Part shown: positions 9,790-31,901 of the stretch, piece after piece
Layout: every line of letters starts with the position of its first letter
Numbering within the stretch: position 1 is the first letter of the stretch
Source: Pseudodesulfovibrio mercurii
GTDB taxonomy: Bacteria; Desulfobacterota; Desulfovibrionia; Desulfovibrionales; Desulfovibrionaceae
Length of the DNA: 32,000 nucleotides
Direction: 5' to 3'
Assembly (NCBI RefSeq): GCF_000189295.2
Contig: NC_016803.1
Span: forward strand, 1,290,001-1,322,000
Notes under the pieces: generated by a model
What the model was told of the DNA's origin: nothing
The model's database searches: none
Seen by the model: only the letters and a program-made list of their open reading frames with translations
Program-made: the position numbers and the translations under genes

Positions 9790-11154
9790 TCAGTCGCGGA
9801 TGACCGACTTGACGTTCACGAACTCGCGGATGCCGAAGGCGGAAAGCTCGCGGCCGAAGCCGGAGCGCTTGATGCCGCCGAAGGGCAGGAGCGGATCGCT
9901 GCGGACCTGGCCGTTGACCACCACCGCGCCCGCCTCGATGCGCCGGGCGAAGGCCAGTCCACGCTCGCCGTCCCCGGTCCAGACCGAGCCGCCCAGGCCG
10001 AAGGGGGTGTCGTTGGCCATGGCCACGGCCTGATCCTCGTCCGTGGCCCGGAAGACCAGGGCTACGGGGCCGAACAGCTCCTCGTGGCAGACGTCGGCGT
10101 CGAAGGGCGCGTCCACGATGATGCTCAGGGGGTAGAAGGCGCCGTCGCCCTCGGGCAGGACCCCGCCCTTGACGACCTTGCCGCCCGCCGCCTTGCAGCG
10201 CTCCACCTGGTCGTGCAGGTCGGCGCGCAGGCCGGTGGAGGACATGGGCCCGACCACGGTGTCCTCGGCCATGGGATCGCCCATCGTGAGCTTGTCCATC
10301 TCCCGGCTCAAGGCCTCGACAAAGGCGTCGAAGACCTCGTCCATGACGATGAAGCGTTTGGCCGCGATGCAGGTCTGGCCCGCATTGCCGCAGCGGGAGA
10401 TGGCCCCGACCCTGGCGGCCTTGTCGAGGTCGGCGTCGGCCAGGACCACGAACGGGTCGCTGCCGCCCAGCTCCATGACGCATTTCTTGAGGCGCGCCCC
10501 GGCGGCCGAGGCGACCTTGCTCCCGGCGCCCTCGCTGCCGGTCAGGCTGACGCCGATGACCGAGTCGTGGTCCAGGACGGCCTCCACCTGGCGCGCCCCG
10601 ATGAGCAGGGTGCGGAAGACGTTGTCCGGGAAGGCGGACTCGCGGAAGGCGGACTCGATGGCCAGGGCGCACTGGGGCACGTTGGAGGCGTGCTTCAGGA
10701 CCACGGTGTTGCCGGCCATGAGCGTGGGCGCGGCCACGCGCAGGACCTGCCAGAAGGGGAAATTCCAGGGCATGACCGCCAGGACCGTGCCCATGGGGGC
10801 GAAGTCCACATAGGCCTCCTGTCCGCTGCCGGACACGGGCATGGAGGCGAGCATGGCCTGCCCGTTCCGCGCATAGTAGTCGCACACGGCCGCGCACTTG
10901 AGGACCTCGGCCCGGCCGAAGGTCACGGGCTTGCCCATCTCCTCGGCCATGAGGGCGGCGAACTCGTCGGCCCTGGCCCGGAGCACCTGGGCCAGGCTGA
11001 GCAGGCACTCGGCGCGGTAGGCGAAATCGGTGGTCTTCCAGGTTGCGTAGCCCCCGGCGACCTCGCGCACGGCTGCGGCGGTCTGTTCGGGGGTGAACTC
11101 GTCAAATTGCCTCGTGACCTTGCCGGTCAACGGATTGGTGCTCTGCAGGGGCAT
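9790..11154 (-). CDS. NAD(P)+-dependent succinate-semialdehyde dehydrogenase / aldehyde dehydrogenase family protein
   Basis: GGAG lies 6 nt upstream of the ATG at 11154. ALDH motifs are FPFWQV, VVLKHASNVP, VMELGGSDP (catalytic Glu), NAGQTCIAAKRF (catalytic Cys), EELFGPV and PFGGIKRSGFGRE. Length and N-terminus resemble Sad/YneI-type SSADH. The start at 11226 is rejected. Confidence 0.85.
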   Translation of the reverse strand: MPLQSTNPLTGKVTRQFDEFTPEQTAAAVREVAGGYATWKTTDFAYRAECLLSLAQVLRARADEFAALMAEEMGKPVTFGRAEVLKCAAVCDYYARNGQAMLASMPVSGSGQEAYVDFAPMGTVLAVMPWNFPFWQVLRVAAPTLMAGNTVVLKHASNVPQCALAIESAFRESAFPDNVFRTLLIGARQVEAVLDHDSVIGVSLTGSEGAGSKVASAAGARLKKCVMELGGSDPFVVLADADLDKAARVGAISRCGNAGQTCIAAKRFIVMDEVFDAFVEALSREMDKLTMGDPMAEDTVVGPMSSTGLRADLHDQVERCKAAGGKVVKGGVLPEGDGAFYPLSIIVDAPFDADVCHEELFGPVALVFRATDEDQAVAMANDTPFGLGGSVWTGDGERGLAFARRIEAGAVVVNGQVRSDPLLPFGGIKRSGFGRELSAFGIREFVNVKSVIRD

Positions 11155-11188
11155 GTCGCTACTCCGAATACATACGTTTGAAACACCC

Positions 11189-11204
11189 CGGCACGGAGGG
11201 TGCG
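11189..11204 (+). promoter_or_regulatory. Candidate sigma54 promoter CGGCACG-N4-GTGCG facing the acyltransferase/galE genes
   Basis: The sequence is cGGCACGgaggGTGCg, with correct GG-N10-GC spacing relative to TGGCACG-N4-TTGCW. A chance match is plausible in GC-rich DNA. Confidence 0.2.
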
Positions 11205-11229
11205 GGGTGCGATAACCGGTTTCCAATGG

Positions 11230-11245
11230 TGCGGAATTGGTGCCG
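11230..11245 (-). promoter_or_regulatory. Candidate sigma54 promoter (minus-strand CGGCACC-N4-CCGCA) upstream of the aldehyde dehydrogenase gene
   Basis: The reverse complement of 11230-11245 is CGGCACCAATTCCGCA, with correct GG-N10-GC spacing. It lies about 77 nt upstream of the ATG at 11154. Confidence 0.2.
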
Positions 11246-11488
11246 GGCCGAGTGGCGGGTCCGGCCCAAGCTCCGGGCTTATGCCAGATCGGACGGGTTG
11301 TCCAGCATCAAGTCCAGCCGGACATGATGCGGTGCGCGACATCCCGGTGACGGATGCGCTCCGGGCACCATTAGGACTGGACAAAAGCGGCGGATTCGTT
11401 GAACCTGTACGCGCTCAAAGGGAATGGGCCCACCGAGGAGAACCGCACGACAACCCCAACCCCGCCACAGGGAGTCCGCCCATCGATC

Positions 11489-12373
11489 ATGGCCGCCATG
11501 AAACCAACCGAATCACCCGCCGGCAGCGTCGTCGTCGAGGACCTGGCCTCGGCCGTCAACTCGGTGCTGCGCATCACGGCCACCCTGATCATCTACCTCT
11601 TCCACTGCCACGGCCTCTACGGCCGGGGCGACAGCCGTCCGCTCTTCTACGCCTTCGCCTTCTTCCTATTCCTGTCCGGCTATTACGCCATGGTCCGGCG
11701 CGAGAACGCCGTGCGCTGGATCAGGCGGCGCCTGCGGCGCATCTATATCCCGTACTGGCTGGTCATCACCGTGGTGGTGCTCAGCAACTGGGCCGTCCAG
11801 TACAAGCCCGTCGGGGTCAAGGAGCTGTTTTTCCTGCTCATCGGGGGGAATCTCTTCATCGAGGACAAGCTCTACGTCATCGCCTGGTTCATCTCGGTGA
11901 TCATCTTTCTCTACTGCTGCGTCTTCCTGATGGCCTATTTCAGGAGCATGGCCCTGCGCTTCCTCCTGGCCGTGGCCCTGGTCTACATCATGTCCCACTA
12001 CCGCATCCCGGTCTATTTTTACGTGGCCTTCACCATCGGCTGGTCCCTGCACTATCTCCTGCTCCGGAGCGGACTGAGCCGGGCCGTCCTGCCCCTGTCG
12101 CCGGGCGCGGCGCGCACCCTGCAACGCGTCTACGGGCCGCTGCTGACGGTCCAGAACTTTTCCTACGAGTTCTTCCTGGTCCACGGCGGGGTCCTGCTGC
12201 TGTTCAACAAGCTCCTCAAGGCCTCCTACGGCGAGGCCCTGTATGCCGGAATCGCCGTGACGATGATCAACGCCATGATCCTGAAGGAACTCACCCGGCG
12301 GATCGAGCTGTTCATCGACGGACGCCGCGCGGCGGCCGGAACGGGCGGCGACGCGAAACGGTCCCCCAATTGA
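11489..12373 (+). CDS. Membrane acyltransferase-3 family protein (putative polysaccharide O-acyltransferase); start uncertain (11399 TTG, 11489 ATG or 11498 ATG)
   Basis: Polytopic and hydrophobic. It has an AT3-like N-terminal R..H signature (SVLRITATLIIYLFHCHG), then FFLFLSGYY, and C-terminal FSYEFFLVHGGVLLL. No convincing RBS precedes any candidate start. Confidence 0.65.
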   Translation: MAAMKPTESPAGSVVVEDLASAVNSVLRITATLIIYLFHCHGLYGRGDSRPLFYAFAFFLFLSGYYAMVRRENAVRWIRRRLRRIYIPYWLVITVVVLSNWAVQYKPVGVKELFFLLIGGNLFIEDKLYVIAWFISVIIFLYCCVFLMAYFRSMALRFLLAVALVYIMSHYRIPVYFYVAFTIGWSLHYLLLRSGLSRAVLPLSPGAARTLQRVYGPLLTVQNFSYEFFLVHGGVLLLFNKLLKASYGEALYAGIAVTMINAMILKELTRRIELFIDGRRAAAGTGGDAKRSPN

Positions 12374-12427
12374 TGCCGATTTCTTGAACCGCCCCGCGCA
12401 ACGGGGCACGGAACAAAGGATTTCGCC

Positions 12428-13453
12428 ATGAAAATCAAAAAGGTATTGGTCTCCGGAGGTGCCGGGTACATCGGCACCCACACCTGCATCGAGCTCATCG
12501 CCGCAGGCTTCGAGGTGGTCTGCGCGGACAACTTCTGCAACAGCTCGCCCGTGGCCATGGAGCGGGTGGAGCAAATCACCGGCACGGCCATCCCGGTGCA
12601 TCGCATGGACTTCTGCAGGCTGGACGAGGTCGAGGCCCTGTTCCGCGAGGAGGCCATCGACGCGGCCATCCACTTCGCCGGGCACAAGGCTGTGGGCGAG
12701 TCCGTGGCCAAGCCGCTCAAGTACTACGAGAACAACCTGCTCAGCCTGATCAACCTGTGCAAGGTCATGGGCAAGGGCAAGGCCAGGAACGTGGTCTTCA
12801 GCTCCTCGGCCACGGTCTACGGCCTGTCCGACAAACTGCCCCTGACCGAGGAGACGCCGACCAGCGCCTACAACCCCTACGGCCGGACCAAGCTGTACAT
12901 CGAGGAGATCCTCAAGGACCTCCACGCGGCCGAGCCAGGCTGGAACGTGTCCATCCTGCGCTACTTCAACCCAGTGGGCGCGCACCCGTCGGGGCTCATC
13001 GGCGAGGACCCCTCGGACATCCCCAACAACCTCATGCCGTACATCTCCCAGGTGGCCGTGGGACGGCTCGAAAAGCTGCGCATCTTCGGCAACGACTACG
13101 ACACCCCGGACGGCACGGGCGTGCGCGACTTCATCCACGTGGTGGACCTGGCGCGCGGGCACGTGGCCGCCCTGCGCAAGCTTGAGGAGGAGCCCGGCTA
13201 CATGGTCCACAACCTGGGCACGGGCAAGGGGTGCAGCGTGCTCGAACTGGTCCACGCCTTCGAGCGGGTCAACGGGGTGCCCATCCCCTACGAGATCGTC
13301 GGCCGCCGCCCCGGCGACGTGGCCGCCAACTACGCCGCCACGGACAAGGCCCGGCGCGAGCTGGGCTGGGAGGCCACCCACACCATCGAGGACATGGTCC
13401 GCGACACCTGGCACTGGCAGTCCGAAAACCCCAAGGGATACGCGGAAGACTAG
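12428..13453 (+). CDS. galE: UDP-glucose 4-epimerase
   Basis: Motifs are VLVSGGAGYIGTH (Rossmann GxxGxxG), SSSATVYG, YGRTK (YxxxK), LRYFNPVGAHPSG, NNLMPYI, DGTGVRDFIHVVDLA and GWEA. 341 aa, colinear with GalE. Confidence 0.92.
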   Translation: MKIKKVLVSGGAGYIGTHTCIELIAAGFEVVCADNFCNSSPVAMERVEQITGTAIPVHRMDFCRLDEVEALFREEAIDAAIHFAGHKAVGESVAKPLKYYENNLLSLINLCKVMGKGKARNVVFSSSATVYGLSDKLPLTEETPTSAYNPYGRTKLYIEEILKDLHAAEPGWNVSILRYFNPVGAHPSGLIGEDPSDIPNNLMPYISQVAVGRLEKLRIFGNDYDTPDGTGVRDFIHVVDLARGHVAALRKLEEEPGYMVHNLGTGKGCSVLELVHAFERVNGVPIPYEIVGRRPGDVAANYAATDKARRELGWEATHTIEDMVRDTWHWQSENPKGYAED

Positions 13454-15850: not shown

Positions 15851-17824
15851 TCACTTTTTCCCACCCATGGCGATATCCGCCAGCTCGCGGCGTGCGCGCT
15901 CCCAGTCGTCCGGGTTCACGGACCAGCTGATGCCGCCGTGCACGTAGGTCGGGTCGCTCTTGTCCGTGACGCCCAGTTCCCACAGGCTCTTGGGCACCAT
16001 CTTCCTGACCAGGGCGTCCACGGCCTCGGGATCGACCGCACGCGCCATCCGCAGATACTCGTAGTCCTGCAATCCGCGACGCCACAGCTTCAGGCGCAGG
16101 CTGGCGATGGGGCCGAGCAGGTTGCAGCTCTCCTCCGGGTAGACCGTATCCGTGCCCGGATAGAACAGCAGACCGTCCCCGTTGCCGTATCCGTTGCCCC
16201 ATGCGCCGTACTTGGGATGGGGTTCGCTCTTCCTGCGTCCGAAGGTGCACGCCTCCTTGAAGACGTTGACCCGGAACTTGGTGAAACTGGGGTTGCTGTA
16301 GTTGGTCCCCGCCCAGTAGAACCACCGGTCGATGTTGTGCTTGAACTGAATCCAGCCGTTCACGCGCAGGGCCACGCCGTCGTCCTCTATCATGAACGTC
16401 CCCGCCGAGGGTCGCCAGCCGTTGTAGGACATGACCTTGCCGTTTTCGGCCTTGAGCTTGGCCAGGGCCTTTTCGTAGACGTCCGTCTGCCCCCAGAGCT
16501 CGAAGGCGATGTCCACCGACGGCATGTACCGCTGTTTCCGGGGCAGCGACACGGTGCACAGGGTCTGGAGTTCCCGGCCCGGACCGGGGTTCTCCTTGAC
16601 CCAGCGGGCCCACTTCTCCACTTCGGCGTAGGCCTTCTCCCCGTGGGGCTCGTCCTTCAGGTAGAGGAAGCACTCCACGTCGGGATAGTTCTTCTTGAAG
16701 AACTTGACCACCTTGTCGGTGTTTTTCCACATGGAATCCTTGCTGTAGCGGTCCCATTTGCGCTTCAGGGTCCCCCACCCGCCGTAGGTGCCCACGGAGT
16801 AGACGTCGGACGGCATGCCGTAGCCGGGCCCCTCGTAGGCGTGCTCCGCAGTGAACAATTTCCCGTCGTAGACCTTGTCCAGCCGGGAGAACTGTTCCTT
16901 GTAGAACAGCTCCATCCCGTCGGTTATCAGGTGAATCCTGTGCCGCTTGGCCATCTGGAAATAGCGGTACCAGGCCGTGTCCATGATCTCCCGCTTTTCG
17001 GGGGTCACGACGCCCGCGTCCCGCCACCGGATTCCGGTGAACCGCTCGTAGACGTCCTCGCAATTGATCCAGACCATGGTCCTGGCGTTGTACGTGTCGG
17101 GCAGGTCCAGGGGCAGCACCTCCAGCTCGACGGGCAGTTCGACGGGATTGCCGCCCCTCTCCTCGATCCTCAGCCCGCCCTTGTACACGCCGGGCTCGGC
17201 GTCGCGCGGGACGTAGATGTCCACCCACACGGCCTGATTCTCGCCCTTGGGTATGGAAAAGGCCCCCACGGCCTCCAGGGGCTCGGCGATATCGGGGTAG
17301 AACTTGTTCGCGTTGGGGCGGTCCGCGAACCGGCCTTTGGACTTGCCCTTGGGCAGGCTGTACGGCAGTTGCAGCTTCTCGGGCACGTGCCGCTCGTCGT
17401 AGGTGGGCGTGTAGGCCAACTGCGAAAGCCCGGTGATCTTGAGGTAGCGGACGAAAAACAGTTCGATGTTTCTGCCGCGGTAGTCGAACACCCCGTCGCC
17501 CTCGGCCTTGCGCGAGGAGATCCGCCCACCGTTGTCGGACACCAGGTCGCTCATGGACACGCGGACGTCCCCGGCCTCCCCGCCGGCGCTCTCGATCACG
17601 GCGTTGAAGTCGATGACCTCGTCGCGGGCCGCGAACAGGTGAACGACCTTGCCGTCCCACACGCTGTTCCGGACGTCCCGGCCATTGGTGGCCCGCAGTT
17701 CATCCTTGACCACCTTGTCCTCGCCGTTGTTGACCCAAACGGCCGTGATGGACCCGGCGCGGGCGTTGACGCCCCACGCAACGATGCTCAGAACCACCAG
17801 AATCGCGCAATACACTCTCTTCAT
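15851..17824 (-). CDS. Secreted DUF4091 / GH123-like glycoside-hydrolase-type protein
   Basis: Signal peptide MKRVYCAILVVLSIVAWGVNARA|GS. C-terminal features I associate with DUF4091 are GDGLLFYPG, GPIASLRLKLWRRGLQDYEYL. It lies inside the polysaccharide operon. The family call is from recollection only. Confidence 0.65.
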   Translation of the reverse strand: MKRVYCAILVVLSIVAWGVNARAGSITAVWVNNGEDKVVKDELRATNGRDVRNSVWDGKVVHLFAARDEVIDFNAVIESAGGEAGDVRVSMSDLVSDNGGRISSRKAEGDGVFDYRGRNIELFFVRYLKITGLSQLAYTPTYDERHVPEKLQLPYSLPKGKSKGRFADRPNANKFYPDIAEPLEAVGAFSIPKGENQAVWVDIYVPRDAEPGVYKGGLRIEERGGNPVELPVELEVLPLDLPDTYNARTMVWINCEDVYERFTGIRWRDAGVVTPEKREIMDTAWYRYFQMAKRHRIHLITDGMELFYKEQFSRLDKVYDGKLFTAEHAYEGPGYGMPSDVYSVGTYGGWGTLKRKWDRYSKDSMWKNTDKVVKFFKKNYPDVECFLYLKDEPHGEKAYAEVEKWARWVKENPGPGRELQTLCTVSLPRKQRYMPSVDIAFELWGQTDVYEKALAKLKAENGKVMSYNGWRPSAGTFMIEDDGVALRVNGWIQFKHNIDRWFYWAGTNYSNPSFTKFRVNVFKEACTFGRRKSEPHPKYGAWGNGYGNGDGLLFYPGTDTVYPEESCNLLGPIASLRLKLWRRGLQDYEYLRMARAVDPEAVDALVRKMVPKSLWELGVTDKSDPTYVHGGISWSVNPDDWERARRELADIAMGGKK

Positions 17825-25104: not shown

Positions 25105-26427
25105 TCATTTCGGCTTCCTCATGGTGTACCGCCTTCTTCCGGCAAGGGGGGCATTCTCCGGCAGGTCCGGGGTTTCCGACGGGACCGGGGCTTCCCGGAC
25201 CGGGACTTCCGCTACCGGGACTTCCACCGGGAAGGGGCTCTCCATGGTCAGGACCCGCTCACGGATCATGGCGATGCTCAAGACGAAATAGAGGACGATG
25301 TGGTAGCCCCAGGAGAGGAACATGCCTCCGGCCATGAAGCCTATCAGAGCCAATCTGATCCCCCGCCCGAGCCAATCGTTCTCGTCCGTGGGCTTGGCCC
25401 GCTTGTACGCGGAAAAGAGCATGCCCATGAACACGATGAAACCGGGGATGCCCAGTTCGACGCCCACCTGAATAAAGGAATTGTGCGCCTCGCTCCAACG
25501 GCCGCCGGAGTTGACCTGTCCTTCCGCCACCCGGAAGGTATCGACGCCGGTGCCCAGTATCGGATTCCGCTTGAACAGGGTCCACCCGTTCTCCCAGATA
25601 TCCATCCGGCCCCCCTTGGACGTCATGTTGTAATCGCTTTCCAGGGTGAAGACGGAACTGAACCGGGCCAGATCCTCGGCGGGGGCGAGCGCCATGATGA
25701 CCGCCAGGGCCAGGGCGCCCAACAGGCCGATCCGGACCATCCCCTTGAACCCCTTGGAGAACCCCCAGGCCGCCACGGTGACGAGGGCCGCCACCAGGCC
25801 GCCCCTGGACTGGGTCAGGACCACGGCGCCTACGCCGATGACGGTGAGCAGGTACAGTCCCCACTTGTACATCGGCTTGACGAACTTGGCGGACGGCAGG
25901 ATGAGGGCGAGCCCCATGATGAAAAAGAGCGCGGTGTCGTTGGGATCGTAGGACCAGTTCGCCGCGACCCTGTTCCCCTCGACGTACCTCGGGGCGACGA
26001 AGCAGATCACCCCCATGACGAACAGGGTCAGCGCTATCCCGCCCAGGCTGTACCGGAAATCGTCCCGCTGGTTCACCTGGCAGTTGAGCGCCAGCAGAAC
26101 GACACAGAAATACATGCAGAATTCCTTGAAGAAGGAAAGCGAATGGGATGGATAGATGCCCGTGAAGATGCTGACGAACATGATCGCCAGCATGGCGGCG
26201 AACCAGCGGAAGGTCATGGAGCGCCAGAACAATGCCAGCCGAGGCTTGGCCAGGCCCTGGTGCGACACAATCGCCAGCATGAGCACGATGGACATGACCA
26301 GGACCAGGCGCAGGGGCCACAGTACGCGAAAGACCTCCTGGACCCGTCCGAGCAGGATGAGCGGCATGGCCATCAGCAGCCAGTCCATAAAACGTGGCCG
26401 CCTTACGGGGCCGAACGCCTGATTCAT
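25105..26427 (-). CDS. wzy: O-antigen ligase/polymerase family membrane protein (Wzy-like)
   Basis: 440 aa starting MNQAFGP (the ATG at 26427 overlaps the upstream stop as ATGA). Multiple TM spans, LTQSRGGLVAAL, a periplasmic loop with GTGVDTF..SEAHNSFIQVGVELGIPGF (Wzy_C-like), and a Pro/Glu/Val-rich C-terminal tail. The 811-aa ORF-track model is an artefactual 5' extension. Confidence 0.85.
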   Translation of the reverse strand: MNQAFGPVRRPRFMDWLLMAMPLILLGRVQEVFRVLWPLRLVLVMSIVLMLAIVSHQGLAKPRLALFWRSMTFRWFAAMLAIMFVSIFTGIYPSHSLSFFKEFCMYFCVVLLALNCQVNQRDDFRYSLGGIALTLFVMGVICFVAPRYVEGNRVAANWSYDPNDTALFFIMGLALILPSAKFVKPMYKWGLYLLTVIGVGAVVLTQSRGGLVAALVTVAAWGFSKGFKGMVRIGLLGALALAVIMALAPAEDLARFSSVFTLESDYNMTSKGGRMDIWENGWTLFKRNPILGTGVDTFRVAEGQVNSGGRWSEAHNSFIQVGVELGIPGFIVFMGMLFSAYKRAKPTDENDWLGRGIRLALIGFMAGGMFLSWGYHIVLYFVLSIAMIRERVLTMESPFPVEVPVAEVPVREAPVPSETPDLPENAPLAGRRRYTMRKPK

Positions 26428-27638
26428 TGTGCGGTCTCCCGTAATTTCACGCCCTCGGCCACTTCGCCGTAAAAGGCGACGTGCCGGCGGGCCCAGTCCC
26501 GGGTCCCGAATTTCCGGCCGGTCTGGTCGAATGCGGCCCTGCCGTGGCGCTGCCTGAGCTCGCCGCTGCTTACGTAGGCGGCATACCCCTCCCAGAGGGC
26601 GGCCAGGTCGCCGGTGGGATACAGGGTCCCGTCGAGGCCGCTTTCGACCACGTCCACGTTCCCGCCCACGGCGGGGGCCACGATGGGGAGCCCGTAGGAA
26701 CGCGCTTCCAGCAGGCACATGGGCGTGCCCTCCCAGGTGGATGTCTGGACCAGGATATCCGCCCCCCGATAGACCGTGTCCATGTCCGAAACGAACCCGG
26801 TGAAGACCACCCGATGACGGATGCCGAGGGATTCGGCCAGGGCCTCCATGTCGGCCTGCAACTCGCCGTTGCCGACGATGAGGTAATTGATGTTCGAGCC
26901 CGGATTCTCCGTCATTTCCCGCCGGATCAGCTCCAGGTACAGGGGGAAGTTCTTCTGCGGGCAGATCCTGCCCACGTTGATGACCACCAGCCCTTCGGGG
27001 TCGAGGCCGTACCGTTCGACCAGTTCCCTGCGGGCCTCGGCCCTGCCGGATTCCAGGGCCGCGTACTCGGGCTCGGGCCGTTTGATGGCGTTGATGATGG
27101 ACGCGGTCCGGACCTTGCCCGGATCGGGGAAGGAACTGGCCAGAATCTCCCTGGAACAACCGATGACGCCGTCCGACATGCGCAGGCCGATCAGCTGGCA
27201 GTTCCGGATGAACCAGGACATGGCCCCGGAGGGCAGGACAAGGCCGTGCAGGGTGTAGACGACCGAGCCGTCGAGCAGGCCGAGCATGCGCATGAGCACC
27301 GCGTAGTACAGGGACTTGTAGCAGTGGCAGTGAACGACCCGGACGCCCTGCTCGCGGAGACTGGCGGCCAGCCGGTACAGGAGTCTCGGGGAAAACCGGC
27401 TGTGGGTGCGGAACACGCGGGCGAACCGGCTGACGTCCCCCAGGGCGTTCATCAGGTTGTCGTTCCGCTGCGCACCGGCCCGTTCCTCGACCACCACGTA
27501 GAGCAGACATTCCAGGCCCAGCCCGCGAAGGCTGCGGCACAACTCCACCGCGACCTTTTCCCGGCCGCCGAAGTCGCCGGAAAAGGAGACGTGGGCGATG
27601 GCGCCCGTCCCGGGACTATGCTGCGTTGAACCGGTCAT
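26424..27638 (-). CDS. Family-4 (GT1-fold) glycosyltransferase
   Basis: GGREKVAVELCRSL, VVHCHCYKS, then VQTSTWEGTPMCLLEARSYGLPIVAPAVGGNVDVVESGLDGTL. The start lies 1 nt after the upstream stop. Confidence 0.85.
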   Translation of the reverse strand: MTGSTQHSPGTGAIAHVSFSGDFGGREKVAVELCRSLRGLGLECLLYVVVEERAGAQRNDNLMNALGDVSRFARVFRTHSRFSPRLLYRLAASLREQGVRVVHCHCYKSLYYAVLMRMLGLLDGSVVYTLHGLVLPSGAMSWFIRNCQLIGLRMSDGVIGCSREILASSFPDPGKVRTASIINAIKRPEPEYAALESGRAEARRELVERYGLDPEGLVVINVGRICPQKNFPLYLELIRREMTENPGSNINYLIVGNGELQADMEALAESLGIRHRVVFTGFVSDMDTVYRGADILVQTSTWEGTPMCLLEARSYGLPIVAPAVGGNVDVVESGLDGTLYPTGDLAALWEGYAAYVSSGELRQRHGRAAFDQTGRKFGTRDWARRHVAFYGEVAEGVKLRETAQ

Positions 27639-27639
27639 G

Positions 27640-30465
27640 CTACCCCTGCGGCCTGCTGATGCCCACGGTGACGGTTTTGGCCTGGTGGCGGATGGTGTCG
27701 ATGGGGCGGGTCATTTCTTCGATGGCCTTGTTCAGGATGGTCAGGATGTCGGCGAGGCGCGCCTCGGTGGCGCAGATGGCCTCGGACTGGTTGACCAGCC
27801 AGAGCATGTAGTTGGCCAGGCTTGCGGCCACCCGGGCGGGCAGGGCCGAGTCCGTGGCGCCCGAGGCGATGCGCTCCACGCACAGGTTCAGGGCCGTCAG
27901 CAGCGCGGCGCGGTCGAAGGTGGCCGTGTTTTCGAGCATCCCGCCGATGAGCACGCGCGCCTTGCGGAAGGGCTCGGCGTGGGAGTCGATGGCCTTGGCC
28001 GCGGACACGCCCCACCAGTGGCCGGCCACGGTCTCGAGCACGAAGTCCAGGCCGCCGCCCGCGCGGGGCACCTTGACGGTCGCCTCGGCCACGCGGTCGA
28101 AGCGGTCCTCGTCCTCGGCGCAGAACACGATGGGCGAGCCGTTGTGCGCCTTGAAGATGGTCGTCTCCTTGACCGTGTCCGTGACGACCATCTCGGGCAG
28201 ATCCGAGGCCATGACCAGGGTCAGGGGCTCGGTGGACAGGTCGATGTGCTTCTTGTCCTCGGTGACGTCGCACGGGATGGATTTATAGCACAATTCCGAG
28301 AGCTTGATGCGCACTTCCTGGGCCGCGATGCAGTTCGCGCCGTTGCCGACCAGGGCCCAGTAGCGGTGCACCGGGGCGTACTTGCGGGCCACCTCGGCGA
28401 TCTGCTCCTTGTTTTCCAGGACCTTGTCGATCAGCCCGGGCAGCCCCTCCAAGGCCTCGATCTCCTTGAGGATCGTCCCCTTGTCCAGGGTGCCGAGGAT
28501 GTCCGCCAGCCAGAGGGACAGGAGCTTGCCCGCCGCGATCTGGGAGTAGAACGCCTTGGTCGAGGCAACGGCCATCTCCACGTCGCGGCCGTTGGAGGTG
28601 TAGATGTGCGAGTCCGACTTCTGGACCAGGGGCGAGTTGCGCCGGTTGACGATGCAATTGACCCACGCGCCCCGGTCGCGGCACAGGTCCACCACCCGGT
28701 TGGTGTCCGTGGTCGTGCCCGACTGGGAGACCGGGATCAGGAACACGTCGTCCATGCGCTCGTCGCCCATGAAGCCGATGAGTTCGGAGCCGGTGTAGGA
28801 CTCGATGGACATGCCCGTGTCGGCCAGGGTGCGGCGCAGGAGCTGGGCCACGGCCATGGCGGCCACGGCAGCCGTGCCCTGGCCCACGCAGATGATCCGG
28901 CGGATGGGCCGGGTCGCGTCGCGGAACCGCTCCACCAGGGCCGGGCCGCGCCCGAAGCCCTCGGGCAGGAACTCCACCTCGCCGTTTTTCTTGAGATATT
29001 TTCCGTGCAGAGTGTTGCGCACCGAGTCCGGGGCCTCGTGGATTTCCTTCTCGATGTAGTGGGCGTACTCGCCCCGGAAGATGTCGCGCGAGAAGATCTC
29101 GATCTTCTCCTCGGCCAGCTCCACCGGCCCGCCGTTGTCCAAGTAGCGGGCCACGGGCACGGCGTCGGCCGGGTCGGTGTCGCGCAGGACCACGGACACC
29201 CCGCCCTGGCGGTGCACGGCCACCGGGAAGGAGCTGCGGGCCCGGGCGGCCATGCCGTAGGCCTCGCTGGCCACCAGCCAGCCGTCCTGGGTGCGGCCGA
29301 TGTAGAAGGACTGGCCCGACCCCTTCTGGGCCAGGAACTGGGAGTCGAAATCATTGAGGTTCTGCATGACCACGGCCAGCGACCCCTCGCACCGCCGGAG
29401 CACGTTGCGGAAGCGCTCCTCGGCGTCGCCGGTGTCCTCCACGCCCAGGTGGAAGAGCACGGGCAGGATCTTGGCGTCGGTCGAGATGGCGGGCGGGATG
29501 TGCGCGCCCTTGGACAGGACCGTCTCCTCGACCAGGGTGCGGTAGTTGTCCACGTCGCCGTTGAGCACGAACATGGTCTTTTCGAGCCCGGTGGACATGT
29601 CGCCCTCGACCAGGCCGTCGACCGGGTGGCAGTTGGGAACGGAGATGATCCCGTTGGAGGCCCAGCGGGTGTGGGCGATGATGTTCAGGGTTTCCAGCCC
29701 CTGGGACATGGTCCACAACAGGTCGTCATGCTTGATGAACTCGCGCAGGGCCGCGCCGTTGTCCCCGAGCTGGCCGACCAGCTGGGCGACCTTGTACAGG
29801 AAGCGGCAGGCGGTCCGGCCGTCGTTGAGCTTGCGCACCAGGACCTGGCGGGTGTCGGCGTTGCCGATGGAGCTGCGCTCGGCCAGTTCCTGTTTCTGCG
29901 CCGGGGTCAGGTCGACCTCGGGGTCCACGCCCGCGGGCAGGACAAAGGCCAGGGCCACGCCCGCCGAGTCGCGGCCGCGCACCTCGAGCTTGTCGATGGA
30001 CTGCAGGACCTGCTCGGCCCCCCAGGCCAGGAAATGGCGGTCGCGCGCCTCGGGGTTCGCGGCCAGTTCGCCGGGCATGAGCGCCAGGGTCCGGTCCACG
30101 TTGACCAGGACCTCGCGCTCGATCTGCCACAGGTAGTCGTCCAGGGCCTCGCGCAGGGACTCCAGCGCATCCGTGCGCGGCCCCTGCTCCAGCTTGACGG
30201 CGGCCGCGTTGCGCAGCGCCCGGATGGAGTCCCGGATGCCCGACAACGCCCGCCGCGCCTCGGGATCGCCCACCAGCCGCATATGCAGCCCGAAGGACAT
30301 GAGGTCGTAAAACCGCCCGGCCAGCTCCGCCAAAGGACCGGCGGCCGAAAGCAGGTCGTCACTCTTCCGGGCCTCGGCAAAGGACGCGTCGAGCCCGCCC
30401 AGCCAGGACACGTCGGGCACGGTCAGCCACAGCCTGTTGCTCAAGAAACTCGCGATGCCGCACAT
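27640..30465 (-). CDS. Atypical 941-aa GlmS-like class-II glutamine amidotransferase with tandem SIS domains (sugar-phosphate aminotransferase)
   Basis: GGAGAGGGAG RBS. N-terminal MCGI nucleophile, then LEVRGRDSAG only at aa 160-169. Further motifs are IIAHTRWASNG, VLNGDVDNY, STDAKIL and HYIEKEIHEAPDSVRNTL. SIS1 has VGQGTA..VSQSGTTTDT..VASTKAF and SIS2 has LVGNGANCIAAQEVRIKLSE..KKH. The C-tail is HQAKTVTVGISRPQG (compare GlmS LAKSVTVE). Confidence 0.85.
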   Translation of the reverse strand: MCGIASFLSNRLWLTVPDVSWLGGLDASFAEARKSDDLLSAAGPLAELAGRFYDLMSFGLHMRLVGDPEARRALSGIRDSIRALRNAAAVKLEQGPRTDALESLREALDDYLWQIEREVLVNVDRTLALMPGELAANPEARDRHFLAWGAEQVLQSIDKLEVRGRDSAGVALAFVLPAGVDPEVDLTPAQKQELAERSSIGNADTRQVLVRKLNDGRTACRFLYKVAQLVGQLGDNGAALREFIKHDDLLWTMSQGLETLNIIAHTRWASNGIISVPNCHPVDGLVEGDMSTGLEKTMFVLNGDVDNYRTLVEETVLSKGAHIPPAISTDAKILPVLFHLGVEDTGDAEERFRNVLRRCEGSLAVVMQNLNDFDSQFLAQKGSGQSFYIGRTQDGWLVASEAYGMAARARSSFPVAVHRQGGVSVVLRDTDPADAVPVARYLDNGGPVELAEEKIEIFSRDIFRGEYAHYIEKEIHEAPDSVRNTLHGKYLKKNGEVEFLPEGFGRGPALVERFRDATRPIRRIICVGQGTAAVAAMAVAQLLRRTLADTGMSIESYTGSELIGFMGDERMDDVFLIPVSQSGTTTDTNRVVDLCRDRGAWVNCIVNRRNSPLVQKSDSHIYTSNGRDVEMAVASTKAFYSQIAAGKLLSLWLADILGTLDKGTILKEIEALEGLPGLIDKVLENKEQIAEVARKYAPVHRYWALVGNGANCIAAQEVRIKLSELCYKSIPCDVTEDKKHIDLSTEPLTLVMASDLPEMVVTDTVKETTIFKAHNGSPIVFCAEDEDRFDRVAEATVKVPRAGGGLDFVLETVAGHWWGVSAAKAIDSHAEPFRKARVLIGGMLENTATFDRAALLTALNLCVERIASGATDSALPARVAASLANYMLWLVNQSEAICATEARLADILTILNKAIEEMTRPIDTIRHQAKTVTVGISRPQG

Positions 30466-30497
30466 GATGCTCCCTCTCCTTGTCGTCGCGGACGGCG

Positions 30498-31901
30498 CTA
30501 GCGTTTGTACTTGTCCTCAAGGCGGACGATGTCGTCCTCGCCCAGATAACTGCCGGTCTGGACCTCGATGAGCTCCAGGAGGATCTTGCCCGGATTTTCA
30601 AGCCGGTGGACGTTGCCCAGGGGGATGTAGGTGGATTCGTCCTCGCCGAGGAGGAACTCCTTGTCGCCGTTGACGATCTTGGCAGTTCCCTTGACCACCA
30701 CCCAGTGCTCGGCCCGGTGGAAATGCTTTTGCAGGGACAGGACCTCGCCCGGTTTGACGATGATCCGCTTGACCTGGAAACGGTCGTCCGCCGAAATGGA
30801 CTCGAAGCTGCCCCAGGGGCGGTAGACCACCTTGTGCGCCTCGGTCTCGGGGCGCTTGGCGGCCTTGAGGCGGCGGATGACCGACTTCATGTTGTCCAGC
30901 TTGTCGTTGGCGGCCACGAAGACCGCGTCCTGGGTCTCCACCACGGTGGCGTTGTCGAGCCCCAGGGTGACCACCAGCCGCCCGGAGGAGCGCACGTAGC
31001 TGTTGTGCGTGTCCTCGGCGACCACGTCCCCGAGCAGGCTGTTGCCCGCCGCGTCGCGGGGGTGCATGTCGTGCAGGCTCTTCCAGGAGCCCAGGTCGCG
31101 CCAGGCCATGTCGATGGGCACCACCTCGATGGAATTGACCTTCTCCATGACCGCGTAGTCGATGGAGTCCGACGGGCAGCGCCCGAAATCCTCCTCGCCC
31201 AGCCGGATGAAGTCCAGATCCTTGTAGCTGTTGGCCACGGCCGTCCGGCAGCTGTCGAGGATGGCCGGGGCGTGCTCGGCCAGGGCGTCCAGGTAGCTCG
31301 ACGCCTTGAACAGAAAAATGCCGCTGTTCCAGAGGTACTGGCCCGAGGCCAAATATTCCTCGGCCGTCTCGCGCGCGGGTTTCTCCACGAAGCTGTCCAC
31401 GCCGAAGACGCCTTCGGACACGGCCCCGCCCTTGCGGATGTAGCCGTAGCCCGTGTGGGGGTGGTCCGGGACCACACCGAAGCAGACGAACCGGCCCTGT
31501 TCGGCGCGCTCGCAGCCCAGGGACACGGCCCGCCCGAAGGCCTCGGGGTCGGCGATGGAGTGGTCGGCGGGCATGACCAGCAGGACCGGATCGCCGCCGT
31601 GCTCCATGAGGGCGGCCACGGCCGCCGCCGGGGCGGTATTGCGGCCGAAGGGCTCCAGGACCATGCGCCCGGAGGTGCCGAGCTTGCGCAACTGTTCGGC
31701 CACCAGGAAGCGGTACTCGGTGTTGCAGACCACGATGGGTTCCACCGCCTCGGGCAGGGACGCGCAGCGCGCCACGGCGTCGGCAAAGAGCACGCGGCCC
31801 TCGGAGACCTCGATGAACTGTTTGGGGTACAGGGTCCGGGACAGGGGCCAGAGCCGGGTGCCCTCTCCGCCGCAAAGTATGACCGGTTGCAAAGACTTCA
31901 T
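30498..31901 (-). CDS. manC: Bifunctional mannose-1-phosphate guanylyltransferase / mannose-6-phosphate isomerase
   Basis: GGAGGAGAG RBS. Motifs are VILCGGEGTRLWPLSRTLYPKQF, LVMPADH, GYGYI, YLWNSGIFLF and a C-terminal cupin (RPWGSFESI, VKRIIVKPGE.LSLQKHFHRAEHWVVVKGTA, VHRLENPG, GEDDIVRLEDKY). Confidence 0.92.
   Translation of the reverse strand: MKSLQPVILCGGEGTRLWPLSRTLYPKQFIEVSEGRVLFADAVARCASLPEAVEPIVVCNTEYRFLVAEQLRKLGTSGRMVLEPFGRNTAPAAAVAALMEHGGDPVLLVMPADHSIADPEAFGRAVSLGCERAEQGRFVCFGVVPDHPHTGYGYIRKGGAVSEGVFGVDSFVEKPARETAEEYLASGQYLWNSGIFLFKASSYLDALAEHAPAILDSCRTAVANSYKDLDFIRLGEEDFGRCPSDSIDYAVMEKVNSIEVVPIDMAWRDLGSWKSLHDMHPRDAAGNSLLGDVVAEDTHNSYVRSSGRLVVTLGLDNATVVETQDAVFVAANDKLDNMKSVIRRLKAAKRPETEAHKVVYRPWGSFESISADDRFQVKRIIVKPGEVLSLQKHFHRAEHWVVVKGTAKIVNGDKEFLLGEDESTYIPLGNVHRLENPGKILLELIEVQTGSYLGEDDIVRLEDKYKR

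Follow-up and report, generated by a model that had tools for sequence, protein, structure and literature searches.

The 32,000-nucleotide stretch of Pseudodesulfovibrio mercurii analysed here (NC_016803.1, positions 1,290,001 to 1,322,000; referred to below as the window) contains a gene for an unusually long homologue of the glucosamine-6-phosphate synthase GlmS. Judging from its sequence, this gene probably encodes a catalytically competent enzyme (EC 2.6.1.16 chemistry) and constitutes an extra copy, linked to exopolysaccharide (EPS) genes, of the housekeeping GlmS of its lineage. GlmS carries out the first committed step to UDP-GlcNAc, is near-universal and is an antibiotic target. The long form belongs to a widespread clade that departs from the textbook GlmS architecture while keeping every catalytic residue that we checked. 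This reading draws on the architecture of the protein, the conservation of its residues, the extent of its family, the context and duplication of its gene, and the targeting of that gene by Tn7 in relatives. The window gene would be explained as a precursor-supply copy in an EPS operon and not as new chemistry.

The window ORF encodes a GlmS homologue with conserved catalytic residues

The initial annotation had described a 941-aa GlmS homologue at 27640-30465, and this extent is exact for a minus-strand open reading frame (ORF) of 941 codons with an ATG start. The ORF and the parts of its product are as follows.

27640..30465, minus strand: long-form GlmS ORF, 941 aa, complete, ATG start (ORF list, Pfam GATase_6 and SIS matches, full-length homologues, AlphaFold2 model and Foldseek)
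30471..30482, minus strand: Shine-Dalgarno sequence AAGGAGAGGGAG, 5 nt 5' of the ATG that gives Met-Cys1 (read from the sequence)
30460..30462, minus strand: codon of Cys2, equivalent to E. coli Cys1 and the N-terminal nucleophile once Met is removed (alignment to E. coli GlmS)
30022..30447, minus strand: N-insert, aa 7-148, an autonomous all-helical domain in the glutaminase domain (alignments; AlphaFold2)
29071..30021, minus strand: class-II N-terminal-nucleophile (Ntn) glutaminase core, aa 149-465, holding R163, R267, W268, H280, N302, G303 and D330
27958..29070, minus strand: linker and two SIS subdomains (isomerase/synthase), aa 466-836, holding T531, S580, Q581, S582, T585, V633, S635, K637, E717, K721, E724, K739 and H740
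27682..27957, minus strand: C-insert, aa 837-928, a helical module right before the catalytic tail (alignments; AlphaFold2)
27640..27681, minus strand: catalytic C-tail A929-K930-TVTV, then GISRPQG and the stop codon; family members share 93% identity in the tail region

Because the strong Shine-Dalgarno sequence lies 5 nt before the ATG, the product is predicted to begin Met-Cys-Gly-Ile. The GlmS blocks that had been reported for the translation (MCGI, RGRDSAG, HTRWAS, NGDVDNY, YIEKEIHEAP, SQSGTT, VASTKAF, KKH and AKTVTV) are all present in the stated order, and the identification of the ORF as a GlmS homologue with conserved large inserts is supported. In Pfam, the protein matches GATase_6 and SIS (2e-15 for SIS), and the NCBIfam glmS models are its top matches, though at about half their curated cut-offs. 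Among PDB sequences, human GFAT1 comes closest (E = 6e-26), followed by E. coli GlmS (1e-22). An AlphaFold2 model computed with 76 homologues has a predicted local distance difference test score (pLDDT) of 86 and a predicted template modelling score (pTM) of 0.83, with disorder only in the His-loop (726-741) and the tail (922-941). A Foldseek search with this model returned only GFAT/GlmS structures, the match to hGFAT1 having E = 5e-27, with TM scores of 0.73 to the closed form of E. coli GlmS (2J6H) and 0.85-0.88 to isomerase domains.

The long ORF might in principle be an artefact in which two genes were fused by an undetected frameshift or a misassembly, a case that the initial annotation had named. 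This can be dismissed for practical purposes: inserts at the same positions and of the same lengths occur in hundreds of full-length homologues that are colinear with it and stem from independent genomes and metagenomes, which rules out a fusion. In addition, the GC content at third codon positions is 0.95 uniformly along the ORF, as is usual for coding sequence in the window, and the AlphaFold2 model is confident across the inserts. Nothing was found in favour of an artefact.

Residues were mapped with an alignment of the window protein, eleven diverse homologues and E. coli GlmS. Among the more than 20 E. coli residues that were checked, T76S, H77N and S303A are the sole differences. In the glutaminase domain, Cys1, Arg26, Arg73, the Trp74 gate, His86, the Asn98/Gly99 oxyanion hole and Asp123 (E. 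coli numbering) are conserved; the nucleophilic Cys is kept in 11 of the 12 family sequences of this alignment, the exception (P0082) being apparently truncated at its N-terminus. Conservation extends in the synthase domain to Thr302, Ser347/Gln348/Ser349/Thr352, Val399/Ser401/Lys403, Glu481, Lys485, Glu488, Lys503/His504 and Ala602/Lys603. The catalytic residues of the isomerase/synthase, Glu481, Lys485, Glu488, His504 and Lys603, correspond to E717, K721, E724, H740 and K930 of the window protein and are invariant in the family, as are R163, R267, W268, H280, N302, G303 and D330 of the glutaminase domain. Over more than 70 diverse members, Cys1, the Asn/Gly oxyanion pair, the Trp gate, Glu488, His504 and Lys603 are invariant as well. 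The initial annotation had read EDKKH at the position of the isomerase Glu, which was a misassignment: the GELKH motif used for comparison carries Lys503/His504, kept here as K739/H740, and Glu488 sits in KLKEISY of E. coli, which corresponds to KLSELCY here with the Glu kept as E724.

With E. coli GlmS (1JXA/2J6H; TIGR01135), the long form shares the Ntn Cys1 glutaminase, the two-SIS isomerase domain, the AK(S/T)VTV tail with its Schiff-base Lys, and the fold. The two-SIS sugar-phosphate domain is also found in the NagB-II/GlmD deaminase, the FrlB deglycase and AgaS, and the window protein gives a weak NCBIfam match to NagB-II (4e-11), but those proteins lack the glutaminase domain and the Lys-tail, both of which the long form has.

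Two conserved helical inserts flank the catalytic elements

The window protein is 27.5% identical to E. coli GlmS and contains 355 residues that the E. coli protein lacks, so that a compact two-domain enzyme of ~600-700 aa is replaced by one of 941 aa. To the canonical plan it adds a helical domain between strand beta1 and helix alpha1, expansions of the glutaminase domain, a 92-aa module before the tail, and residues past the tail. In the alignment with E. coli GlmS, the N-insert accounts for 136 of these residues (aa 7-31 and 38-148), and the C-insert, which immediately precedes A929-K930 in the chain, for 92 (aa 837-928). Further additions lie in the glutaminase domain (57 residues in four pieces within aa 174-256, 10 residues at aa 283-292 and 27 residues at aa 414-440), in the linker/SIS region (7 residues, aa 514-520) and after the VTV of the tail (7 residues, aa 935-941). 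The extra length had been described as concentrated at two sites; both of these inserts are real, but together they hold only 228 of the 355 residues, about two thirds, the rest lying elsewhere.

The length of the inserts is fixed across 76 members (~1% gaps), and among distant members they are 34-40% identical, compared with 56-65% for the catalytic cores. Within the N-insert, D110, W113, Q114 and W148 are invariant in the family, and an AlphaFold2 model of this insert alone is all-helical with a pLDDT of 95.6 and a pTM of 0.88. The inserts are therefore not the low-complexity, non-conserved sequence that the initial annotation had allowed for. A Pfam search of the whole protein, of the isolated inserts and of the C-terminal extension of the longer relatives returned nothing for the added parts. 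The N-insert profile matched only generic helical proteins among PDB sequences (E > 0.08), and its AlphaFold2 model had no significant match among PDB folds with Foldseek (best E = 0.77).

Human GFAT1 (6R4E and others), the best match in the PDB by both sequence and fold, is also longer than bacterial GlmS. GFAT has ~680 aa, and its extra sequence lies within the glutaminase domain, carries phosphorylation sites and is used for regulation. GFAT1/2 differ from the long form in that they have no domain after the Cys1 strand and no pre-tail module, and in that their tail is C-terminal.

The inserts probably exert control over the Cys1 site and over closure of the tail, whether allosterically or through the oligomeric state. 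More speculatively, the N-insert, emerging just behind the Cys1 strand, and the C-insert, standing right before the lid-forming tail, might modulate activation, channel closure or oligomerisation. Canonical glmS is controlled by a ribozyme, by GlmY/GlmZ and by GlmR, and an Rfam scan at gathering thresholds of the window and three relatives for upstream RNA regulators (the glmS ribozyme and others) found only tRNA. One tentative proposal, which we regard as possible but somewhat doubtful, is that the two inserts, with the C-terminal domain present in most members, form a built-in allosteric switch that gates glutaminase activation and tail closure and replaces the RNA and protein controls of canonical glmS, the class having taken the place of the essential canonical enzyme in one lineage or more, with Tn7 following. 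The family would probably represent a new mode of GlmS regulation, and it provides a natural experiment in which added modules are either tolerated or put to use by ammonia channelling and tail closure.

The added domains, which have no known function, also leave room for a protein that has lost catalysis and acts as a sensor or regulator for sugar phosphate or glutamine on a GlmS scaffold, the helical inserts being its output domains. Hybrid histidine kinases beside the gene in 27 loci fit this idea. We consider it highly improbable, given that the catalytic residues are invariant over more than 70 diverse members, which is unexpected for a non-enzyme, and that Pfam searches detected no DNA-binding or signalling domain.

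Long-form GlmS is a large and widespread class

More than 120 full-length homologues cover 100% of the window protein. An exhaustive search of 1.84 billion cluster representatives found more than 150 clusters at 50% identity, with 439 representatives at E < 1e-30. A scan of one genome per species yielded 299 long-form loci, distributed over Pseudodesulfovibrio, Salidesulfovibrio, Desulfomonilaceae, Syntrophaceae, Polyangiaceae, Rhodospirillales (Nitrospirillum, Niveispirillum, Rhodocista, Oleisolibacter and Magnetospirillum), Competibacteraceae and others; a search of a plasmid collection for homologues found none. Members of the family are named simply 'SIS domain-containing protein' by the NCBI PGAP pipeline, and because of this label whole genera seem to be without glmS in automated metabolic reconstructions. 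A literature search for the long-form family, and for glmS in Pseudodesulfovibrio or Desulfovibrio, returned nothing relevant. Long-form GlmS is thus a large, widespread, unnamed and so far undescribed class.

Most members are longer than the window protein (1100-1260 aa), the ~940-aa form being a minority. The longer members carry an extra C-terminal extension of ~200 aa after ...AKTVTVGISRPQ, which has no Pfam match. Because the short forms (~940-960 aa) are not monophyletic in a neighbour-joining tree, this C-terminal domain must have been lost at least three times.

Tn7-like elements target the long-form gene in relatives

The C-terminus of GlmS is among the most conserved of protein segments, which is why glmS is a safe place for Tn7 to land. 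TnsD binds the final 36 bp of the gene, the part that codes for the active-site tail, and insertion takes place ~25 bp downstream of this site (Mitra et al. 2010, PMC2918618). The homologous site of the window gene is the following.

27658..27693, minus strand: 36-bp stretch homologous to the attTn7 TnsD-binding site, with the seven TnsD-critical bases conserved (PMC2918618); putative, by homology

There is no Tn7 in the window itself. Among the 14 Desulfovibrionaceae loci with a readable 3' flank, however, ten have a Tn7-type right end (TGTGGG..ACAATAAAGTTGTTAAC) that starts 4-7 bp past the stop codon of the solitary copy. The elements lie at 12827-14258 in L006, at 12834-20620 in L011, and just past the stop in L009, L010, L012-L016 and L018. 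In most cases the end has repeated TnsB-type sites, two or three in number. Four of the ten loci have TnsA genes, and in L011 tnsABCDE is complete, with the TniQ/TnsD and TnsE_C domains. Tn7 therefore targets the long glmS as its glmS attachment site in these relatives, in line with the use of the 3' end of bacterial glmS as attTn7 by Tn7-like elements.

The geometry of these insertions matches that at canonical glmS. In the measured E. coli attTn7::Tn7 junction, the Tn7 end lies 25 bp past the stop, which is 31 bp past the final Val codon of AKSVTV. At the long-form loci the corresponding distance, counted from the homologous Val codon in AKTVTV, is 28-31 bp, with the spacer filled by the seven additional codons. 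If +23 is taken to be the final base of the stop codon, each of the seven TnsD-critical bases is retained at the homologous position in all long-form genes, the window copy included.

TnsA of L011 shares 57-62% identity with its counterparts from Tn7-like elements of Enterobacter, Citrobacter, Aeromonas and Vibrio. Three other Desulfovibrionaceae loci encode a homologous TnsA, 54-60% identical, directly behind a canonical glmS of 607-608 aa; of these loci, those of Desulfovibrio sp. UCD-KL4C and Paucidesulfovibrio longus have a full tnsABCDE and that of a Desulfovibrio metagenome-assembled genome has only tnsA and a TnsB fragment. The gene that precedes these related Tn7-like elements is thus the long form in Pseudodesulfovibrio and canonical glmS in sister genera.

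The short long-form proteins stop within a few codons of the attTn7 insertion point. That they were born when Tn7 truncated a longer gene is unsupported speculation, and three short forms from outside the Desulfovibrionaceae (L004, L091 and L092) have no adjacent Tn7.

Two further observations concern these flanks. Several of the Tn7-like elements are remnants of which only an end is left, and the remnant in L006 carries insertion sequence elements together with Colicin_D/immunity and Imm32 cargo. Upstream of canonical glmS, a Ham1p-like (RdgB/ITPase) gene occurs in three other Desulfovibrionaceae loci, L088 (3378-5858), L089 (329-5859) and L090 (3316-5854); it is directly adjacent to glmS in L088 and L090 and separated from it by two genes in L089.

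The long form is the likely housekeeping GlmS of Pseudodesulfovibrio

As a proxy for a search of whole genomes for canonical glmS, we searched the canonical GlmS of Paucidesulfovibrio against 5.8 billion proteins and considered the best 120 matches (67-100% identity). No Pseudodesulfovibrio or Salidesulfovibrio was found among the named organisms of these 120 matches, which represent Maridesulfovibrio, Humidesulfovibrio, Fundidesulfovibrio, Solidesulfovibrio, Oleidesulfovibrio, Desulfocurvus, Desulfocurvibacter, Paucidesulfovibrio and several Desulfovibrio species, about ten genera. The same database holds well over a dozen Pseudodesulfovibrio/Salidesulfovibrio genomes. A canonical GlmS was likewise absent from the 86 long-form loci that we fetched, these being loci and not whole genomes.

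In relatives, the long-form gene is typically found alone. The orthologues of P. thermohalotolerans (89% identical), P. piezophilus, Desulfomonile and others each stand alone, with unrelated genes around them and no polysaccharide neighbours, and at this conserved solitary locus the between-species identity among Pseudodesulfovibrio relatives is 80-89%. The lack of a canonical match in the best 120, the Tn7 result, the conserved solitary locus and the level of identity between species together suggest that the long form has likely displaced canonical glmS in the Pseudodesulfovibrio/Salidesulfovibrio lineage and serves as its housekeeping GlmS. It would then be a clean example of a divergent homologue that has taken over from an essential enzyme, with a mobile element following the change. 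The initial annotation had considered that this might be the sole, ordinary GlmS of the organism from a family already characterised; the long form is probably the sole GlmS type in the lineage, but its family is neither ordinary nor characterised.

NodM of rhizobia and PtmA/PtmF of Campylobacter are secondary GlmS copies in specialised loci, of canonical length or split, and diverged from the housekeeping copy. By analogy with NodM, the long form could be a second, specially regulated isozyme that stands beside an undetected canonical housekeeping GlmS. The family does occur in Rhodospirillales and other lineages where canonical GlmS may also occur, and the negative result for Pseudodesulfovibrio comes from the best 120 matches only. 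We nevertheless regard such an isozyme as unlikely: Pseudodesulfovibrio and Salidesulfovibrio are missing from matches in which some ten sister genera appear, Tn7-like elements lie behind canonical glmS in those genera and behind the long form in Pseudodesulfovibrio, and at the conserved solitary locus, identity between species amounts to 80-89%.

The window gene is a manC-linked copy in a polysaccharide operon

The setting of the window gene differs from the solitary one. The initial annotation had placed it in an operon between manC and a GT4 glycosyltransferase gene, and this position is borne out by the short intergenic distances and the polysaccharide genes around it. Its direct neighbours are as follows.

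30498..31901, minus strand: manC (GDP-mannose pyrophosphorylase / mannose-6-P isomerase), upstream operon partner
26424..27638, minus strand: GT4 glycosyltransferase, first gene of the variable Wzx/Wzy-type polysaccharide cluster

From the manC stop to the long-glmS start there are 32 nt, and from the long-glmS stop to the GT4 start there is 1 nt; inspection of these gaps found no promoter-like or terminator-like sites. The ~20 kb around the gene form a Wzx/Wzy-type polysaccharide cluster, with five GT4 or GT4-like genes, two GT2 genes, and genes for a Wzy_C protein, a flippase, a GH123-like protein, an acyltransferase and an epimerase/dehydratase.

This arrangement is not a property of the family, since the gene of relatives is solitary and has neither a shared partner nor a known upstream RNA element. 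When all ORFs of the 86 loci were clustered in search of a shared metabolic partner, none emerged beyond lineage-specific synteny and generic histidine kinases, and no association with polysaccharide genes was found across more than 80 loci.

A complete genome deposited as 'Desulfovibrio caledoniensis' lm2024 (CP195092.1) contains two long-glmS copies, designated L007 and L017. Synteny links L007 to the solitary locus in P. thermohalotolerans. L017 has manC and the long glmS in common with the window, over 4.25 kb of sequence with 90% nucleotide identity. The two copies share a tract of 2745 bp with 99.6% nucleotide identity (10109-12853 in each locus), which runs from nt 109 of the ORF to 27 bp past the stop, and they differ only in the first ~36 codons, at 18 residues. 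This tract looks like the product of gene conversion between the resident and the EPS-linked copy. The 5' end of the window gene is of the L017 type, so that the manC-linked copy predates the split of these organisms and appears to have been homogenised with the resident copy by gene conversion in lm2024.

The EPS locus of lm2024 is of the exosortase type, with the order GAF kinase, sigma-54 activator, manC, glmS, EpsH, DUF3485, deacetylase and glycosyltransferases. P. karagichevae has the same glmS-EpsH junction as L017 and also an EPS-linked copy. Its contig NODE_41 (L084, 1-1271) opens inside the long glmS at aa 520 and runs into the EpsH exosortase gene, and such a contig break is as expected if the genome holds a second, near-identical copy. 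The gene set of the window differs from that of lm2024 in being of the Wzx/Wzy type and lacking EpsH. The pair of manC and long glmS is thus apparently a conserved module for precursor supply, placed at the margin of an EPS locus that varies in content. By analogy with lm2024 and P. karagichevae, we infer that the window gene is the second, manC-linked copy and that its own genome has a resident copy too.

This copy resembles NodM and PtmA/PtmF in that a GlmS-type activity within a glycan or signal locus would boost amino-sugar supply, as it appears to do in the window; it differs from them in being a long form and in being near-identical to the resident copy, apparently through gene conversion.

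The initial annotation had proposed a dedicated, non-housekeeping amidotransferase. The protein is indeed a non-canonical GlmS and its gene a copy embedded in a polysaccharide operon, but neither a different substrate nor a non-housekeeping nature of the family was upheld. A polysaccharide-cluster amidotransferase that aminates another keto-sugar phosphate and is not a housekeeping GlmS would suit the position between manC and GT4, the recurrence of the manC linkage in lm2024 and probably in P. karagichevae, the scores below the curated glmS cut-offs, and the substitutions T76S, H77N and S303A near the active sites. We judge it very unlikely. Apart from these three, all the sugar-phosphate, Schiff-base, isomerase and glutaminase residues checked are kept, and the residues for sugar-phosphate binding and catalysis are the same as in GlmS. 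The EPS-linked copy of lm2024 is 99.6% identical to the solitary resident copy, and therefore a distinct specificity of the EPS-linked copy is not expected there. Moreover, more than 80 family loci lack an association with polysaccharide genes, and Tn7 treats the long-form gene as glmS. A different substrate for the window enzyme is, on this comparison of residues and copies, unlikely.

Proposed role of the window enzyme

In the scheme that we favour, that of an active long-form GlmS encoded by an EPS-linked copy, glutamine would be hydrolysed at the N-terminal Cys, as the conservation of residues indicates, and the ammonia would pass through the Trp-gated channel. Fructose-6-phosphate would be held as a Schiff base on Lys930, and Glu724 and His740 would bring about amination and isomerisation to glucosamine-6-phosphate. 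The window copy would be co-transcribed with manC and the glycosyltransferases, and upon expression of the EPS operon it would raise glucosamine-6-phosphate, and hence UDP-GlcNAc, alongside the GDP-mannose supplied through manC. Copies of the window type would be kept near-identical to the resident copy through gene conversion.

Several points weigh against this scheme. Enzymatic activity is, for every member of the family, a prediction from sequence. Window and E. coli proteins differ at T76S, H77N and S303A, and the window protein scores below the curated glmS cut-offs (196 vs 418 bits for TIGR01135; 218 vs 381 bits for PRK00331). Unlike in canonical GlmS, the AKTVTV tail does not form the protein's C-terminus, being followed by 7 residues here and by ~200 in most members. 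The absence of canonical glmS was taken from the best 120 matches, many of them without an organism name, and not from a whole-genome search. Long form and canonical GlmS may coexist in Alphaproteobacteria and other groups, which would argue for a specialised role there. Finally, the resident copy in the genome of the window is postulated from lm2024 and P. karagichevae.

Other features of the loci and the window

A gene for a hybrid PAS/HAMP histidine kinase-receiver protein, in many cases accompanied by a Peripla_BP_6 protein, adjoins the long glmS in 27 loci of different phyla, on either side (for example L002 6025-9761, L004 13285-17819 and L074 14343-17201, with about 24 other loci). This adjacency could have arisen by chance, kinases being abundant and merged by single-linkage clustering, or could be a hint of regulation.

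In the polysaccharide cluster of the window, between GT4 and GT2 genes, a minus-strand gene at 15851-17824 encodes a 657-aa protein with weak matches to the GH123 N-terminal and catalytic domains, which may be a glycan-trimming or processing enzyme. Elsewhere in the window, a minus-strand gene at 706-2805 encodes a Lon-type protease (AAA, Lon_lid and Lon_C) of uncommon architecture, in which a response-regulator receiver domain replaces the usual N-terminal substrate-binding domain.

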